This document shows, piece after piece, positions 1,188 through 46,848 of a DNA stretch of 64,000 nucleotides. How positions within the stretch are numbered: the first letter of the stretch is position 1; every line of letters starts with the position of its first letter. The stretch spans positions 58,876 to 122,875 of the forward strand of contig JABCTC010000003.1 of assembly GCA_018238545.1 (NCBI GenBank), read 5' to 3'. Made by a program: the position numbers and the translations under genes. The notes beneath the pieces were generated by a model. It had not been told where the DNA came from and did not search any database. It saw only the letters and a list, made by a program, of their open reading frames with translations. The DNA is from Candidatus Heimdallarchaeota archaeon (lineage in GTDB: Archaea; Asgardarchaeota; Heimdallarchaeia; Heimdallarchaeales; Heimdallarchaeaceae).

Positions 1188-1208
1188 TTTAGAACATTAT
1201 CTACTGAC

Positions 1209-1425
1209 ATGAGTTATTTTTCCCACTTTCCCCATAGTGAGGAAGGTGGAGAGCAATTTTGAGGACTCTTCCCAACCCAAGAACGTACAAGGTAGCATCG
1301 CAGCAAGCAGTAGCGTAAGGGGGTTCAAGCTCTGGAATTACACCTCCAACACACAGTGTTAGCGGAGGTGAACGGGTTCATCTCCTCTCCGGGACTCATT
1401 TCTGGAGGCAATGTTGTTGAGCACC
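1209..1425 (-). ncRNA. Putative TnpB omegaRNA/reRNA scaffold
   Basis: About 215-nt GC-rich non-coding stretch 3' of tnpB with hairpins CACCTCC-AACAC-aca-GTGTT-agc-GGAGGTG (1341-1370) and CCACTTTCC...GGAAGGTGG (1223-1249); position matches known reRNA location; boundaries inferred. Confidence 0.6.
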
Positions 1426-2977
1426 TTAGGTACTCACTCCAGCTCCGGGGGTAAGCAGATGACTCTGCTTTGTCTGTAGCCATTGGCTCAAGACAGGGAA
1501 AACACGAAAAGAACTGAGAGGGAAATATTTTCCTGTAAGTTGATCTTTTATTGAAGTATACTTTGGTTGCAGAACATATTTGATCAGTCTTTTAGCTATA
1601 TTCTTCGCTCCATTCAAGTCAGCATTGAGGTTATACCCACAAGTCTGGCAGGTGAATGTAGGTTGGTTATGACGAGTAGTGAGATAGGAACCACAGCGAG
1701 AACAAGTAGAAGAAGTCCATGATTCATTGATGGCTAGTATCCTGTGTTCTTCCCAGCCATTAAGTGAGAGCTTGAATTTGAGTAATTCTATCACTCTCCT
1801 ATAATTCCATTTGTGGACACTTTTACGTGTGCTCGGTTTTTGGTTTCCCCTATATTGACTCTTACGGATGTTATGGGGGAAACCTACTACCACATGGAGA
1901 TCATACCTCTTTCCTAAGGAGAGAATGTACTTGACAAGTTTGTTGACATAGGTATGGTCGGTTAGCTTATGTTCCGTTCTTTGTCTCTTTCGGAGTAGTT
2001 TAAGTTGATAAACAACTTGTTTTCTTTTTCCAAAACTCAAACTAGGTTTAGCTAGAACCTTTTGCAGTTTAGAGGTTTTTTGTTCAGTTTCCTTTAGCAG
2101 TTTTTTTCTTGTCTTATCAGACCAAAATCTGATCTCATGTTGGTTGATTGTTCCTTTCGGAGTTAGAAGCGCACTTACTGCACGTTTATTGATTCCTAGA
2201 TCTATCCCCAGCACAGCTGGAGGACGAGATGAAGAATATTTATCTGGAACATGAAGCAGGATGAAATGTACCCACCATTCCTTTTTCTTGGGAGAGTATA
2301 GTACTTCTAGAGCTTGTATTTTCCCTTGGTGGATTTTGTACTCGTGATAGGGTGAACAAGCCAGAGGTAACCATAGTTTCTCGTGATTGCGAGTGTTATT
2401 CTTCTTTGTATCTAAGGAGTCTCTTATCCCCACCCACCATCGAGCGATGGAGTTTGAAGGAGTACAAGTAAGAACAAATCTCTTCTTATTCGCTGATTGT
2501 GTTCGTGGTATTTTCTTTGGTAAGGTTTTTTTTGTAGGGGAAGAGTTGAGTGCTTGTTGGCTGTGATAAATAGCTGTAGCATTGTCTCTACATTCTTGTA
2601 GTTCATCATGAGAGGAGCGAGGAAAGCGCCTCTTCAAATCATGTCTAACCTTAGGACGAGATGCATGTGTAGTATTTTTTGTTGTTGTCAAGGTAAGTTG
2701 ATCTAGTTTAACTTTATTCACCTTTTTCTTCCCACTTTTTCCACTGATAAGGTGATCTTCATTATGGTAAATGACCTTAAGAAAATGGTGAATGGTTCTT
2801 GTATCTCTCCCTGTAATCTGTTCCAACCTTCTCTGTTTACGAGCTGTGAGCACTTCTGTTTTAATTCTCGCTTTTACAGTTGTTCTCACTCTACTTCTCG
2901 TCATTCAGGAATCATTACTTATAGTAGATTTTCCTATAAAAAGCTAACATTAATATGGGAAAATGGGTAGAAACTAC
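1212..2977 (-). mobile_element. Non-autonomous tnpB-only element (IS200/IS605- or IS607-related)
   Basis: Contains only tnpB; visibly more GC-rich than flanks; bounded by CATG at 1208-1211 and 2978-2981; imperfect inverted cores CCCACTTTCCCCATA (1222-1236) and TATGGGAAAATGGG (2954-2967), each 10 nt inside the CATG; subterminal hairpin 1223-1249. Confidence 0.7.
1426..2904 (-). CDS. tnpB: RNA-guided endonuclease TnpB, 492 aa, rearranged RuvC-II
   Basis: RuvC-I VLGIDLG; RuvC-II position reads VVGFP (no Glu); alternative Glu in INESWTS; zinc finger CSRC...CQTC; RuvC-III NADLNGAKNI. Confidence 0.93.
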   Translation of the reverse strand: MTRSRVRTTVKARIKTEVLTARKQRRLEQITGRDTRTIHHFLKVIYHNEDHLISGKSGKKKVNKVKLDQLTLTTTKNTTHASRPKVRHDLKRRFPRSSHDELQECRDNATAIYHSQQALNSSPTKKTLPKKIPRTQSANKKRFVLTCTPSNSIARWWVGIRDSLDTKKNNTRNHEKLWLPLACSPYHEYKIHQGKIQALEVLYSPKKKEWWVHFILLHVPDKYSSSRPPAVLGIDLGINKRAVSALLTPKGTINQHEIRFWSDKTRKKLLKETEQKTSKLQKVLAKPSLSFGKRKQVVYQLKLLRKRQRTEHKLTDHTYVNKLVKYILSLGKRYDLHVVVGFPHNIRKSQYRGNQKPSTRKSVHKWNYRRVIELLKFKLSLNGWEEHRILAINESWTSSTCSRCGSYLTTRHNQPTFTCQTCGYNLNADLNGAKNIAKRLIKYVLQPKYTSIKDQLTGKYFPLSSFRVFPVLSQWLQTKQSHLLTPGAGVST

Positions 2978-2978
2978 C

Positions 2979-3251
2979 ATGGCTCACGATATAGTGTTAA
3001 AAGTTATCAAACAAGAAGGTAATTGTGCAGCTGGTCACAATGTTGGAGATGAAATCATTATAAGCTTCGAAAATAATGAAATCAAAGGTAAAATATGCCT
3101 CCATGCACTTTATTCTGTTTTCCCTAAAGTGTTTGCGATGGCTTATGGGGCAGAATTTCCTTGGCTAGAAGATGCTGATATATCAACTCATGCTTGTCCT
3201 GATGCTTGGAACCCTCTTGTTTATGAAGTAAAAAGAAAAAGGGAAAAGTAG
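2979..3251 (+). CDS. TIGR04076-family small Cys-containing protein
   Basis: GNCAAGHNVGD, ICLHAL, CPDAWNPLVYEV pattern; ATG 2979 preferred over track start 2955, which lies inside the tnpB element. Confidence 0.75.
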   Translation: MAHDIVLKVIKQEGNCAAGHNVGDEIIISFENNEIKGKICLHALYSVFPKVFAMAYGAEFPWLEDADISTHACPDAWNPLVYEVKRKREK

Positions 3252-3259
3252 GATAGTTA

Positions 3260-4180
3260 CTATATTATTAAGTAAACTATCTTGTCGACTATAAAGAGTG
3301 TTAAGAAAACTAGGAAGACTATTAGAAGTATTTCCTTTGTGGTATAAGCCCACTTAGGGCTCTGGTTTATCAAGATAGCTACAGCTAAGAACAACACTAA
3401 CGCGATTACAAGATATCCAATTATTTGGCTTGCCAAGTAATGTAAACCGATAAAAACAGCTGTCCCCCCTCCTGCAAGTAGACAAAATAGAAAGAAGGAT
3501 CCTATAATAGCAGCTTTTTTAACTCCAAATTTCACGGCTAATGTTCTAACTCCTGCATCTCTATCTCCTTCAACATCTGGTAAGCCTTTTATTATTTCTC
3601 TACCAATATTTCCAAGACCTGCTGCAGCTCCTACTATTATGGGTACATATTGGAACTCTCCACCATATACTAAATATGAGTGTAATGCACCATAAGCAAA
3701 CAATGCAGTAACATTCATTCCTATTGTGGTATTCCCCCAAATTCCAAGTTTCTTTAGTTTAAAATCATAAAGGTCAAGAGAACCTCCAAATAGTATTACT
3801 GTTAATACACTCAAACCATACAAACCGTTGATTACATCAATTACAACACCTGTAATTAATGCAAGAATAGCAACAATTACTCCATAAATATACGCCGCTT
3901 TAATAGATATTTTTCCGGAAGGTATAGGTCTATGAGGTGCATTAGTTTTATCTTCTTCTATATCAGCTATATCATTGAAAATCATAGCTTGACAGGAAAC
4001 AAGTGCCGCTGCTAGGACTACCAGACCTAAACTTAGATAGTCGATGTTTGATACAGAGTCGGGAAGCGAAAGCACTAATCCGAATGCTGCTGCAGCTCCT
4101 GATACAATTCCATTGACTATTCTTATAATAGTAAAATAGGAAAGTACAATTTGTCCTTTTGAAAATTGGGTTTTAGACAT
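3260..4180 (-). CDS. UbiA-family prenyltransferase, probable digeranylgeranylglyceryl phosphate synthase
   Basis: NDIADIEEDKTNAPHRPIPSG and REIIKGLPDVEGD motifs; multiple TM segments. Confidence 0.85.
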   Translation of the reverse strand: MSKTQFSKGQIVLSYFTIIRIVNGIVSGAAAAFGLVLSLPDSVSNIDYLSLGLVVLAAALVSCQAMIFNDIADIEEDKTNAPHRPIPSGKISIKAAYIYGVIVAILALITGVVIDVINGLYGLSVLTVILFGGSLDLYDFKLKKLGIWGNTTIGMNVTALFAYGALHSYLVYGGEFQYVPIIVGAAAGLGNIGREIIKGLPDVEGDRDAGVRTLAVKFGVKKAAIIGSFFLFCLLAGGGTAVFIGLHYLASQIIGYLVIALVLFLAVAILINQSPKWAYTTKEILLIVFLVFLTLFIVDKIVYLII

Positions 4181-4228
4181 GATGCTATGATACCATCAAG
4201 TCAGATATAAAATTTACCTAGCATTCTT

Positions 4229-4393
4229 TCAATCAGCTAGCGTAATAGATAGTTCTATCTCTTTAAGATTCTTTTCGTCAACACCTTTAAGAGAGGTAAT
4301 TAAAGCAAGGTTTAATTTCTTAAATAATTGTTTAATGTAATTGTTCATCGGAACTTTTTCGTTATTAATTTTTAATAGAATCCTGTCTGTCAT
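4229..4393 (-). CDS. Small 54-aa protein absent from the ORF track, resembling the C-terminal domain of archaeal MobB-like proteins
   Basis: Hand translation MTDRILLKINNEKVPMNNYIKQLFKKLNLALITSLKGVDEKNLKEIELSITLAD; fills the gap between co-oriented genes. Confidence 0.65.
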   Translation of the reverse strand: MTDRILLKINNEKVPMNNYIKQLFKKLNLALITSLKGVDEKNLKEIELSITLAD

Positions 4394-4435
4394 TTATGTC
4401 ACTAATAACAATAAAAAAAAGAGTATAATAAAAAG

Positions 4436-5233
4436 TTATTTTAGCTTGATAGTTGGGTTGGGGTCATCTTTTCCATGCATTTCGATATCAACAAGTCCTG
4501 CAGATTCTAGCATTTGTACATATCTTAGAATTGCATGAGTTGATGAACCGGTAGACATAGCTAATCTTTTCAGTTCAATTACTTTGTATTTTTCAAGAGT
4601 GCCAAGCCAGCTATAGGATGGATCATTTTCTGCTATGATTGTATATCTTCTAACAGCTTCCTCTTTGTCTTTTAATTGATCTTTTATTTGATCTAATCTA
4701 GAAGATTCAGCTAGAAACTCATTATGTTTGTTCTCAAGTGTTGCATTCTCGTCTTTAAGTTGCTCTAACTGTGCTTTAAGTTCAGTTGTAACACTTTCAG
4801 TCTCCGCTAAATTTTCTCTTAGCTTGTCTATTGTTTGCTGTTTTTCTTGAAACTCGTCTTTATCAGTTTCTACTTCTCTCTTGAAATTTCCAATTTCTGT
4901 TTCCTTTTGTAATAAGTCATTTTTTAATTGTTGAATCTCATTTTGGCTGTCTTCTTTCTCAGTTTGAAATTCGGAAATTTGTTGATTTAGAGCTGATATT
5001 TCTGTTTCTAGGTCAATCTTTTTAGTTTCTAGTTTCCCAAGAACAGCTGATTTTCCTTTAATGTCAGTTAGCTCTTCAATGAGAGAATTGTTTTTGGTTT
5101 CTAATTCTCCGTTTTTTGTTTCAAGTTCTTCTATCTTTTTCTCAAGATTCTGAACTGTATTTTCTAATTCTGTAATTTTAATTGCGTCACTAACTGAAAT
5201 ACTTCCATTTTCTTCTGCCAAATAAATCACCAT
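4436..5233 (-). CDS. Long coiled-coil protein with C-terminal winged-helix-like domain
   Basis: About 180 aa of E/K/Q heptads followed by LKRLAMSTGSSTHAILRYVQMLESAGLVDI (wHTH pattern). Confidence 0.7.
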   Translation of the reverse strand: MVIYLAEENGSISVSDAIKITELENTVQNLEKKIEELETKNGELETKNNSLIEELTDIKGKSAVLGKLETKKIDLETEISALNQQISEFQTEKEDSQNEIQQLKNDLLQKETEIGNFKREVETDKDEFQEKQQTIDKLRENLAETESVTTELKAQLEQLKDENATLENKHNEFLAESSRLDQIKDQLKDKEEAVRRYTIIAENDPSYSWLGTLEKYKVIELKRLAMSTGSSTHAILRYVQMLESAGLVDIEMHGKDDPNPTIKLK

Positions 5234-5299
5234 GTTATTGAAAGAATCTTAATTCTAACAAAAATATCTGAATCGAATTACTTAAACCTTGTGACTTTC

Positions 5300-6412
5300 C
5301 TAGTCAATTTCAGCTACATCAGCTATCCCGTCATTTGTTATTGCAAATATGGTTTCAATTTCTGGTATGTGGGGACTATCTATTACTCTAGCAATCCTTT
5401 TTTCTCCTTTTCCTTTTCGTAGGAAAACACGTGTTGTGCATGAATGAGCGACTATATTTCCACCAATTGGAAAAATTGTTTCACCATATAGAACGTCGGG
5501 TTTTGAGAGTACTTGGTTGGTTGCAACTATTGCTATGTCATAAACTTCTGCAAAACGTAACAGTTGATGTAAGTATTTGTTTAATTTTTGTTGTCTTTCA
5601 AGTAGCGATCCTCTACCTGTATACTCAGCTCTGAAATGGCTAGTGAGAGAATCAATAATCATCAATTTAACATTATTTTCTTTAATTAATTTAGGACTTT
5701 CAAGCAGCAAAACCATTTGATGATCAGAATTATACGCTCTTCCAACATGTATTCTGCTCAAAACTTCTTCTGCTGGGGCACCAAATTTGTTGCACATTTG
5801 AATTACCCTTTCAGGTCTGAAGGTCCCTTCAGTATCAATATAAATTGCACTTGAACCTAACCCGCCATATTTTTTATCCATAGCAGTCATAACACATAAT
5901 TGAAAGCAAATTTGTGTTTTACCCGTTCGGAATTCGCCAGAGATTTCTGTTAATGAACTTGTCTCGACTCCTCCAGCGAGTAATGTGTCAAGAGATTTGC
6001 TTCCAGTGGGAATTTTAACCAATTTTTGTCGAGTTTCAAGTAGAATTTTAGCGCTTTGAAATCCAATGCCCATCTGACTTCTCGCAGCTGTTATTAACCT
6101 CTTTGCGGTTTGTTCTCCAATTTCGCAGTGCTCTACTAGTTCCATAGGTGATGCATGACCGACCGCAGCTAAAGTTAAGTAACCAGAAGTTATCAGTTTT
6201 TCCGCTATTGCAGGACCTATGCCCGGAATCTGATTGACAGCTATGTCACTAAGATCCTGTTTTTTTGGTTTTTTTGGAGTTGATTTCATTTGTTTAGGAA
6301 TGATATCTTTAATCCAATCCTCTTCTTTTTTGTCACTCGCTCTTTTAATAGATGACTTCTTAGCTGTTGTGATTTTTTTTGCATTTTCTGGAGCATTTTC
6401 TTTCTTTGACAT
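5300..6412 (-). CDS. radA: DNA repair and recombination protein RadA (Rad51-like)
   Basis: N-terminal HhH (IPGIGPAIAEKL), FxxA motif GFQSA, Walker A GEFRTGKTQ, YIDTEGTFRPER, Walker B LMIIDS, GGNIVAH. Confidence 0.97.
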   Translation of the reverse strand: MSKKENAPENAKKITTAKKSSIKRASDKKEEDWIKDIIPKQMKSTPKKPKKQDLSDIAVNQIPGIGPAIAEKLITSGYLTLAAVGHASPMELVEHCEIGEQTAKRLITAARSQMGIGFQSAKILLETRQKLVKIPTGSKSLDTLLAGGVETSSLTEISGEFRTGKTQICFQLCVMTAMDKKYGGLGSSAIYIDTEGTFRPERVIQMCNKFGAPAEEVLSRIHVGRAYNSDHQMVLLLESPKLIKENNVKLMIIDSLTSHFRAEYTGRGSLLERQQKLNKYLHQLLRFAEVYDIAIVATNQVLSKPDVLYGETIFPIGGNIVAHSCTTRVFLRKGKGEKRIARVIDSPHIPEIETIFAITNDGIADVAEID

Positions 6413-45231: not shown

Positions 45232-45341
45232 ATTCTCACACTTGTACTGAATTCTAACGCTCTTATTTCTTAATGTATGATAGCGTTAATATTGTTTTTT
45301 CTATTGGTAACTAAACTAATAGAATATTTATACATCAAACT

Positions 45342-46775
45342 ATGATGAGTTTTTGTCTTGTTGTCATATAAGGACAGCTTTAGTTGAGTATATTTATTAG
45401 AGGTCAACATATAAAACTATAACAGTTCTATACTAACTCTGAGTGGATACATCACGTATCCTCCTACCCCGTTCACCGTGCGTTTAGGCAAGGCTTTCGG
45501 ATCGCTTTTGAGTAGAATATTGTATGCAGCATTGACATCAGCGTTAATGAGATGACCTTGAGCGGTTCGAAACAACCCTCGAGTAACTCTCCGACCAGCA
45601 TAGTTTTTCCTGGCTTGGGGAAATTCATTATCAAGGAAACTAGACTTGGAAGTGTATTCTTCGGGAATCATCTCTACCTTTATCCCTCGTTCTGCGCCCT
45701 TATACTTCAAAATGTTGATAATACGTAGAAAGGGGATGGTGACGAACATTTGGTTGATCTTCTTCCAGAACTGCACCCCTTGTTTCCACTTCTCATTGTA
45801 ACCGATGATAACCTCGTGCAGCCCTCTTTCCACCCACAAGTCAAGTAAATAGCAAGTGAGTTTGTGGATAGCGTCCTTCAATTTCCTCCTCCACTTTTCT
45901 CGGAGTTTGTAGTAGGTATGACCATAGGTCAATCGGTTCTTTCCTGTCAGTTTTTGTCTTTGCTGTTGAGCGTATTGTATCTGTAATTGTTTCTGTTTTT
46001 TTAGATAATATTGGGTTATGGATTTTATCCCTTTCCCTGCATCTTTGACAACAATCGGTTGCCCACCGAGGTTATCCACAAAGGTAGCAATGTTGATTAT
46101 CCCTAAATCTACCCCTCCTTTTCGTATAAACTTTTTACGAAGTTTAGGCAGAGTTTTCTGATAGACTAACTCAAGGGTATACCCAGGTCTTCTTGGGACG
46201 ATTCTCACCTCTCGCAAATCCGTGTGAGAAGTCAATCGTGTCTTGTAAGTGAATCCCACTTTCTTCGGCAGAACCAGCCATCCATTGACAATCCTCGCTT
46301 GTTGGTTGGTAAAAATAGCTACCACTTCCCCATCCTTTTTTTTGTAATTAGGTGGGCGGGGCATAGCGAAGAAATCTCCAGGGTTGACTTTCCACTCTTT
46401 CATTGCTCGGAAATACCCCTTCCAGTTTCTACAGAGGAGTTTGAGCGAATGTTGGGCGGTGTGAGCAGGGAGAACACGATAACACTCTTCATGGTTGAGT
46501 AACTTGTTGAGATCATTGTAAAAGAGGAGTTTGTTCTGTTTGTTCAATGAGGTTTTTATCAGAAAATTCGCTCGATTATAGAGATTTTTAGTTTGATGAC
46601 AAAGCTTGCTCAAGACAAGATGATACTTTACTTCTATACACTCCACCCTAGGAACTTTAGCCATCTCTTATTTATCTAGAGATTCTTATAAAAACTCCCG
46701 TAATATTCACTTTAACCACCCATTTAAACTGATACAATTGTTAGTTAATATGACTGCATGACAAAAATATATCAT
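45342..46775 (-). mobile_element. Non-autonomous tnpB-only element with imperfect terminal inverted repeats
   Basis: 45341-45369 TATGATGAGTTTTTGTCTTGTTGTCATAT versus reverse complement of 46748-46776 TATGATATATTTTTGTCATGCAGTCATAT (23/29 identical); AACT at 45338-45341 and 46776-46779; higher GC than flanks. Confidence 0.75.
45417..46664 (-). CDS. tnpB: RNA-guided endonuclease TnpB, 415 aa, rearranged RuvC-II, zinc finger absent
   Basis: NLYN, GVDLG, IIGYNEKWKQ, PEEYTSKSSFLD, RVTRGLF, INADVNAAYNI. Confidence 0.95.
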   Translation of the reverse strand: MAKVPRVECIEVKYHLVLSKLCHQTKNLYNRANFLIKTSLNKQNKLLFYNDLNKLLNHEECYRVLPAHTAQHSLKLLCRNWKGYFRAMKEWKVNPGDFFAMPRPPNYKKKDGEVVAIFTNQQARIVNGWLVLPKKVGFTYKTRLTSHTDLREVRIVPRRPGYTLELVYQKTLPKLRKKFIRKGGVDLGIINIATFVDNLGGQPIVVKDAGKGIKSITQYYLKKQKQLQIQYAQQQRQKLTGKNRLTYGHTYYKLREKWRRKLKDAIHKLTCYLLDLWVERGLHEVIIGYNEKWKQGVQFWKKINQMFVTIPFLRIINILKYKGAERGIKVEMIPEEYTSKSSFLDNEFPQARKNYAGRRVTRGLFRTAQGHLINADVNAAYNILLKSDPKALPKRTVNGVGGYVMYPLRVSIELL

Positions 46776-46848
46776 AACTGAACAACGTAAAGTTTAATAA
46801 TCTCCCGATAAATCTTTCCATGAATTACTATTAACATGGGATTAAAAG

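Follow-up and report, generated by a model that had tools for sequence, protein, structure and literature searches.

The stretch of DNA analysed here (the window) comprises 64,000 nucleotides of Candidatus Heimdallarchaeota archaeon contig JABCTC010000003.1 (assembly GCA_018238545.1, positions 58,876 to 122,875 of the forward strand). Close to its start, a host gene on the minus strand and a divergently oriented gene of the TIGR04076 family (match above the cut-off, E 4.9e-17) are separated by a 1.77-kb element that carries tnpB as its sole open reading frame (ORF) (Table 1). This element is real and exactly bounded, and it is inserted precisely at the start codon of the TIGR04076 gene. With the AT core counted at both ends it occupies positions 1209-2980 on the minus strand, which corresponds to a net insertion of 1770 bp. 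The genome of the window, designated G000, is 92% complete, and two relatives in the same archaeal family (Heimdallarchaeaceae), G026 and G029, are complete; below, C numbers denote contigs, L numbers loci, and X1 and X2 public sequencing runs.

The sequence CATG is found at 1208-1211 and at 2978-2981, and a CCCA core begins 10 nt inside each of these. A first-pass annotation, made from the letters of the window alone, had pointed out both features as well as a hairpin at 1223-1249, and all of its coordinates were verified. In register, the two arms of the element agree at 16 of 26 nt, a match that is attained by 0.35% of random CATG pairs in G000, and across the copies of the family the agreement ranges from 12 to 23 of 26. 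The orthologous site was empty in 20 of the 21 congeneric loci with the divergent gene, where the two ATG codons are spaced 50-53 nt apart (exactly 50 nt in 17 loci), and the empty locus of G021 equals the reconstructed junction base for base across CATG. We therefore conclude that the insertion shifted an intact TIGR04076 gene 1770 bp away from a bidirectional TATA box, which was indeed shared with the divergent gene, as the first-pass annotation had proposed. Furthermore, two additional copies in G000, namely a frameshifted second copy and a right-end fragment, stop at the same right-end base, 1209, and in the public runs loose contig ends were observed at 1209 and 2982. The boundaries and the empty site that had been predicted were thus borne out, save that the element is formally better written as 1209-2980, with the AT common to both ends. 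In the contigs of four public DNA runs neither the empty allele nor a circle joint was found, although such contigs drop rare forms. The displaced gene could be driven by an outward-reading TATAAAAA of the element, located at 2935-2942 and thereby 36 nt before the TIGR04076 ATG.

Table 1. Features of the tnpB-only element and its insertion site (positions are those of the window).
Feature	Positions	Strand	Basis or remark
Whole tnpB-only element, AT core at both ends	1209..2980	-	Empty orthologous sites, copy boundaries, loose contig ends in public runs
Target motif and predicted target-adjacent motif (TAM) 5'-CCAT (family consensus VCAT)	2979..2982	-	41 sites; TAM activity putative
AT core at the left end	2979..2980		Same bases as the A and T of the TIGR04076 ATG
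Left-end arm with a G followed by a T-tract (10-13 counted from the core) and TTTTCCC-like units in tandem	2955..2978	-	
Archaeal TATA-like box TTTTTATA, putative tnpB promoter	2935..2942	-	Conserved in copies and mini-elements
tnpB, 492 aa, intact	1426..2904	-	RuvC D235, alternative E394, D429; C4 zinc ribbon
Predicted omegaRNA scaffold, about 285 nt, 50% GC	1209..1495	-	Overlaps the last tnpB codons; 5' limit taken from the promoter-scaffold join in gene-less mini-elements
Internal ATGAGT, pairs with terminal ACTCAT (1209-1214), predicted pseudoknot	1394..1399	-	6/6 pairs in all tested copies
Last scaffold stem-loop	1223..1249	-	3' arm doubles as right-end inverted arm
Right end: inverted arm closing in TCAT, AT core 1209-1210	1209..1234	-	TC 41/41, AT 40/41
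Predicted guide, taken from the adjoining host DNA (first 20 nt)	1189..1208	-	Conservation ends after TCAT
Host bidirectional TATA box TATATAAA	1180..1187	.	In the empty allele, 21 nt away from both the restored TIGR04076 ATG and the divergent gene's ATG
TIGR04076-family gene, intact	2979..3251	+	Displaced 1.77 kb from the TATA box
Divergent host gene, 357 aa	85..1158	-	Retains the TATA box

Relatives carry close copies of the element (73-87% identity) as well as a clade at 42-45% identity, of which each complete genome has about 15 copies. Copies that are 99.2% and 99.4% identical occupy different sites, which indicates recent movement. Within a clade the left arm matches the right arm at about 14.5 of 21 positions, whereas across clades only 7-8 of 21 match, showing that the two arms evolve together. 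The inverted arms, already noticed in the first-pass annotation, are real, and they are atypical for IS200/IS605 elements. In addition, G024 contains at least five complete gene-less derivatives of 352-355 bp, which consist of the left end, the TATA box, the scaffold and the right end. Gene-less mini-elements of 270-355 bp, in which the left end and TATA box adjoin the omegaRNA directly, were located at L085, L086, L087, L090 and L091 (G024), L103 (G028) and L098 (G029), and each of these could supply a different guide in trans. The frameshifted second copy of G000 (L001, C62:31318-33056) and L037 of G016 occupy the same site in two species and represent an old shared insertion. Among divergent members, L010 (G011 C121) has the right end CTTAT and L041 (G028 C28) is without a recognisable TCAT end. 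A sister clade at 44-47% identity, so labelled on the basis of identity ranks (L153-L167 in G012, G010, G023, G001, G011, G004 and G006), has the same AACTCAT right end; there, TnpB is found in larger elements, downstream of a HerA/VirB4-like ATPase of 800-900 aa, and the left truncations vary.

The encoded protein matched PF07282 (E 3e-15), scored 88.8 bits with the guided_TnpB model (cut-off 100) and remained far under the cut-off of the IS607 TnpB model (38.9 versus 350 bits). Residues D235, E394 and D429 do not vary across 35 homologues, and a glycine is present at the position of the canonical RuvC-II glutamate. Judged from its sequence, the rearranged RuvC catalytic triad is intact. The RuvC-I motif reads DLG rather than DPG, and the alternative glutamate is located six residues before the zinc ribbon, in agreement with the published non-DPG alternative-glutamate pattern. 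The structure was predicted with a predicted local distance difference test (pLDDT) score of 83.6, and its best fold matches were Cas12f (AsCas12f) and TnpB (ISDra2 TnpB), while Fanzor2 appeared at rank 18 and Fanzor1 entries were absent from the top 50. The resemblance to Fanzors to which the first-pass annotation had alluded holds only in part: the alternative glutamate is there, but the DPG motif is absent and the top structural matches are Cas12f and TnpB. Viral contigs contained distant TnpBs only (8 short-pattern matches lie outside that comparison).

Sequence conservation spans from the end of tnpB to TCAT and then stops. A consensus fold of this region shows several stems, with double changes at 11 of 67 pairs, and the hairpin at 1223-1249 forms the last stem of the predicted RNA; folding of the single sequence was only modestly better than that of shuffles (z -1.9). 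The internal ATGAGT pairs with the terminal ACTCAT at all six positions in every tested copy of the family and the sister clade, and compensatory changes were found in the Heimdallarchaeum clade (ATGATT/AATCAT) and in one divergent copy (ATAAGT/ACTTAT), although the pairing does not fit cleanly in subtype L072. Such a pseudoknot is required in the RNA of IS607 TnpB (PMC10711439). The covarying terminal pseudoknot fixes the guide start at 1208, in line with the previously proposed guide, the reverse complement of 1189-1208, whose expression is a prediction. Among the public runs no RNA run with the element was listed, which bears in neither direction on expression. The constancy of CAT at the right end can likewise be attributed to pseudoknot pairing. 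No second target of the guide (CAT plus a 10-nt seed) was found in G000, and a search of Rfam gave chance matches only.

Junctions of the window family were compared at 41 insertion sites, 40 of which are independent (one site is common to two genomes). At the left junction the target reads VCAT followed by G, where C was found at 39, A at 41, T at 40 and G at 40 sites. The variable position (-4) was occupied by C (12), G (17) or A (12) and never by T, even though T is expected at 36% of such sites (p ~1e-8 if the sites are independent). The right end reads TCAT, and the next base was G at 29, A at 10, C at 1 and T at 1 of the sites. The letters common to both ends are therefore CAT or CATG depending on the copy, never a fixed four, and the fourth base of the apparent CATG duplication recurs because the next base of the target is commonly G. 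What both ends and the target have in common is a 2-bp AT core, which is formally indistinguishable from a 2-bp duplication. Two models had been offered at the outset. The first, a 4-bp target duplication, fails since no constant 4-bp duplication exists over the 41 sites: the base after TCAT varies, and a second family with the same arms shares AT only. The second was right about the TCAT end, but the fixed CCAT proved to be one case of VCAT and the IS200/IS605 logic that came with it was not upheld.

It had further been predicted that a CCAT target would bias insertions toward ATG codons on the opposite strand. Indeed, ORF starts make up 5 of the 41 sites, including that of the window, as compared with 3.7% of all VCATR sites (p 0.02). 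Once intragenic sites were set aside, however, this bias vanished (5 of 29 sites versus 55 of 344 in the background; p 0.8). Start-codon targeting was therefore discarded as a mechanism, and the excess fits selection against intragenic insertions. For a TCAT-flanked copy in runs X1 and X2, the flank runs on into what may be the start of an ORF on the opposite strand.

Besides the window family (family 1), G000 contains three further tnpB-only families (families 2, 3 and 4), whose TnpBs are about 24-33% identical to that of the window where they align. In family 2, all 11 copies whose left end could be read have TCAT then G at that junction, and the right end is (T/C)GAT, so that only AT is common to both ends and the terminal bases are not inverted repeats. 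Families 3 and 4 have the targets (T)TAT and GAT, respectively, and in both the right end is TCAT. Counted from the core, positions 10-12 carry T at either end of families 1, 3 and 4 (83-98% of 52 ends), whereas target flanks are without it, and the ends of family 2 show the same T tract. Moreover, the target and the right end of each family are unlike each other immediately upstream of AT, which parallels CboIStron, where the target TGGG differs from the right end TCGG. The four families thus agree in their AT core, in arms that are inverted and rich in T, and in having a target unlike their own right end, and this common end grammar points to IS607-like mobilisation by a serine recombinase in trans. 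The end of relatives of families 3 and 4 that belong to another archaeal family reads ATAACCT, and one of these relatives is located in an element with IS607 tnpA.

Some further details of these families were recorded. Family 2 (G000 C33:57150-58412 = L423; L420-L433) uses exactly the TCAT target that the window family shuns, and at L431 (G028 C249) its right end is broken at GTAC by sequence that matches the end of a 383-aa DDE element. A family 3 element is present in the window itself at 45338-46776 (416 aa, TTAT then G at the left junction, ATCAT right end, TTGTC tandem arms), and this group has at least 21 matches in G000. Family 4 (418 aa) was found at G000 C124:29739-31107, C62:24333-25699, C78:13426-14794 and on C8, with GAT then G on the left and TTTCCG arms. 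A gene-less repeat of about 240 bp with TGTACAAA arms, apparently with TTAT on the left and GTCAT on the right (G000 C43:118038-118293 and six more places), is another AT-core mini-element.

We consider it probable that the element of the window is a non-autonomous TnpB/omegaRNA element (OMEGA, for obligate mobile element-guided activity) that works like IS607, with AT in place of GG as its core. A serine recombinase acting in trans would bind both inverted arms and excise the element as a double-stranded circle, and this circle would reinsert by way of the AT overlap of 2 bp, so that no true duplication arises. TnpB and the right-end RNA would then cut empty sites that read VCAT plus guide, at which homologous recombination would restore the element, while the element's own right end (TCAT plus guide) would be spared through the T at -4. 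This combination of serine-recombinase exchange over the AT core, with the enzyme supplied in trans, and TnpB homing with a VCAT TAM is the account that we favour. A 2-bp core, imperfect subterminal inverted repeats, short tandem motifs and the absence of a duplication are hallmarks of IS607 (PMC6188088, PMC4058570), and discrimination between the TAM and the element's own right end is known (10.1101/2023.11.20.567912). Such a TAM/self-avoidance filter would explain why each co-resident family has its own flank preference around the AT core.

As to the enzyme, G026 and G029 yielded no serine recombinases other than two XisF/Ccr-like proteins (240 and 249 aa), which stand alone and are syntenic. 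These are 75-80% identical across genera, as compared with 39-50% for their neighbours, and their catalytic motifs are intact in G000, G026 and G029. They were found in 27 of 29 family genomes, but in none of 52 other class members and in no other Asgard family sampled (200-genome sample). Their loci include G000 C6:7212-7922, C88:39720-40421 and C26:28982-29686 as well as L119 and L124. Correlation makes them the leading candidate, and we put them forward only tentatively as the enzyme in question. It is conceivable, but on balance doubtful, that four divergent TnpB lineages converged on the AT-core end, hijacking domesticated host serine recombinases and partitioning the sites by TAM (VCAT, TCAT, TTAT and GAT); a possible, equally speculative part of that scenario is that one lineage came from the aCas1-linked clade and the others from IS607-linked clades. 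With the phage-integrase profile no tyrosine recombinase was found in complete G026 or in G024 and G028, and the stand-alone serine recombinases may therefore have a housekeeping role, such as dimer resolution.

Several observations weigh against IS607-like mobilisation in trans. Neither a recombinase nor a transposase is encoded in any copy of the window family, and the search for an autonomous element with such ends found none; likewise, a repeat census of G000 yielded no transposase-bearing element of this kind. The IS607 TnpA elements resident in these genomes differ in their ends and have GT or GG as core, and IS607 TnpA was sought but not found in complete G026 and G029. The arms of the window family are equidistant from the core, whereas the repeats of IS607 lie at unequal distances from the two ends. 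One TCAT target was encountered in public contigs (runs X1 and X2, at window position 2982), the lone exception to the V rule. With regard to the host recombinases, one paralogue is without the catalytic serine in two genera, none of them, extra copies included, is bracketed by AT-core ends, and their co-distribution with the element reflects one lineage, that is, a correlation and not independent events. Two conceivable sources within the IS607 group were rejected. For a G024 IS607 TnpA with an upstream CATG, considered as the missing autonomous element, a second copy placed the end farther out at a GG core, and the IS607 elements of G000 have a GT core. The latter (C71:12851-15573, C82:18169-20891 and C43:96153-96566) have many 400-bp mini-derivatives and encode a 647-aa TnpB-like protein in which the third RuvC residue is His.

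The symmetric and equidistant arms that co-vary between clades would be accounted for if a DDE transposase moved the element in trans and duplicated AT, as IS630/mariner elements do with TA. The element would then be a terminal inverted repeat (TIR) element and a prokaryotic parallel of the Fanzor1 TIR elements, an idea that we regard as rather unlikely and that revives the first model of the first-pass annotation with 2 bp instead of 4 bp duplicated, a revision to which the same low likelihood applies. In its support, both ends of the window family start with G after AT, the 350-bp mini-elements behave like miniature inverted-repeat transposable elements, DDE-linked TnpBs with inverted ends are known (PMC10691335), and SPu-1 has 33-bp TIRs with putative TA duplications (PMC3627910). 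However, arm positions 4-9 match poorly, the terminal base is unmirrored in families 2 and 3, and the target preference is directional rather than palindromic. A matching DDE family was also missing from five genomes, two of them complete, for the subset of families that was covered: Pfam searches for IS630, IS110, ISAzo13, DDE_Tnp_4 and DDE_Tnp_1_2 gave no match (the ISAzo13 control was silent, making that part a weak test), and neither did profiles of the Harbinger/ISL2 and IS427 types. Two multi-copy DDE families of Heimdallarchaeum were rejected as movers, as their TIRs are unrelated.

Peel-and-paste transposition of the IS200/IS605 type, with a Y1 TnpA acting in trans on TAM CCAT and right end TCAT, appears very unlikely. 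The right end resembles those of IS605 elements, forms a pseudoknot and has a hairpin, and Y1 TnpA is present in G024, G028 and G029. On the other hand, searches detected no Y1 TnpA in G000, nor in complete G026 with its roughly 15 copies of the element, and the resident IS605 elements of G024 and G028 have different ends (TTTAC-like on the left and TTCAAA on the right). Moreover, a conserved left-end hairpin is lacking, the left flank varies, and the co-varying inverted arms would be left without a role. Slightly more improbable still is mobilisation by a Cas1-type integrase of Asgard archaea, the partner of the sister TnpB clade. This possibility is raised by the next relatives of the TnpB (35-39% identity, several annotated as Thorarchaeota), which adjoin giant proteins of 1400-1900 aa in divergent orientation in 32 of 88 loci. 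One giant neighbour has an N-terminal Cas1 match (E 1.7e-7), and those loci carry a 3' GTTCACTCA motif that has been described for aCas1-TnpB loci (PMC10691335). Neither an adjacent aCas1 gene nor this motif is present at the element of the window; a search of 29 family genomes for the giant partner gave a single fragment (E 6e-4) and nothing else, the elements of the aCas1-linked relatives have other ends, and the AT-core families 3 and 4 have IS607-linked relatives instead. In the giant-protein loci (L142, L149, L209-L230 and L022), TnpB is flanked by GAGTGAACTC/GTTCACTCA and AGAAACAGGTC motifs.

When set beside known systems, the element is most like the IS607 elements with TnpB (IS607, IS1535, ISC1926 and CboIStron; PMC6188088, 10.1101/2023.11.20.567912) in its 2-bp core at the ends and in the target without a true duplication, its imperfect subterminal inverted repeats, short tandem motifs and pseudoknotted right-end RNA, and its target motif, which upstream of the core differs from the right end of the element. 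Yet it falls outside IS607 by its core, which is AT and not the GG of most members, and by the absence of tnpA from its copies; the equidistant arms and the aCas1-linked relatives of its TnpB set it apart as well. With the Asgard aCas1-associated TnpBs (Cas1H-Asgard groups, PMC10691335), its nearest protein relatives, it has the rearranged RuvC in common, but it differs from them in its ends, in the aCas1 partner that was found neither at the locus nor in the family, and in being a multi-copy solo element with mini-derivatives. Nor is it an IS200/IS605 element: the tnpB-only members (IS1341 group; ISDra2 TnpB/omegaRNA) also have tnpB as their sole gene, a scaffold that overlaps the ORF end, a right-flank guide and a TCAN-type right end in a pseudoknot, whereas here we observed inverted arms rather than a left-end hairpin, an AT overlap, no cognate Y1 TnpA and a RuvC-II glutamate replaced by glycine. 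Finally, it is not a Fanzor. Fanzor1 TIR elements (SPu-1, PMC3627910) and pro-Fanzors (PMC10711439) similarly have a single nuclease gene between inverted ends, a 2-bp AT/TA junction and the alternative glutamate six residues before the zinc ribbon, but the window TnpB has DLG in RuvC-I, its RNA keeps the pseudoknot that is reported lost in Fanzor1, and no DDE partner was found.

In itself the insertion is unremarkable; the feature that deserves notice is the grammar of the ends. The movement of tnpB-only elements is a long-standing question (PMC3627910), and for one of them the analysis gives the ends, the guide, the rules of target choice and self-avoidance, and a candidate enzyme by name. 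Within the literature that was searchable, we found no paper that describes these element ends, and Wu et al. 2022 listed Heimdallarchaeum repeats only as transposase families. With its aCas1-linked relatives and recombinase-type ends, the element would exemplify a TnpB that switched its mobilising partner, in parallel to the movement of Fanzors between transposon types, which does not make the window TnpB a Fanzor ancestor. The protein itself is a putative 492-aa nuclease with a rearranged RuvC domain and a predicted short TAM, VCAT. If the host recombinases were indeed the enzyme, a close relative of eukaryotes would contain a transposase-free OMEGA network driven by an enzyme of the host.

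Beyond the displaced TIGR04076 gene, the window continues at 3260-6412 with housekeeping neighbours, namely a UbiA-family prenyltransferase, a coiled-coil protein and a RadA/Rad51 recombinase.

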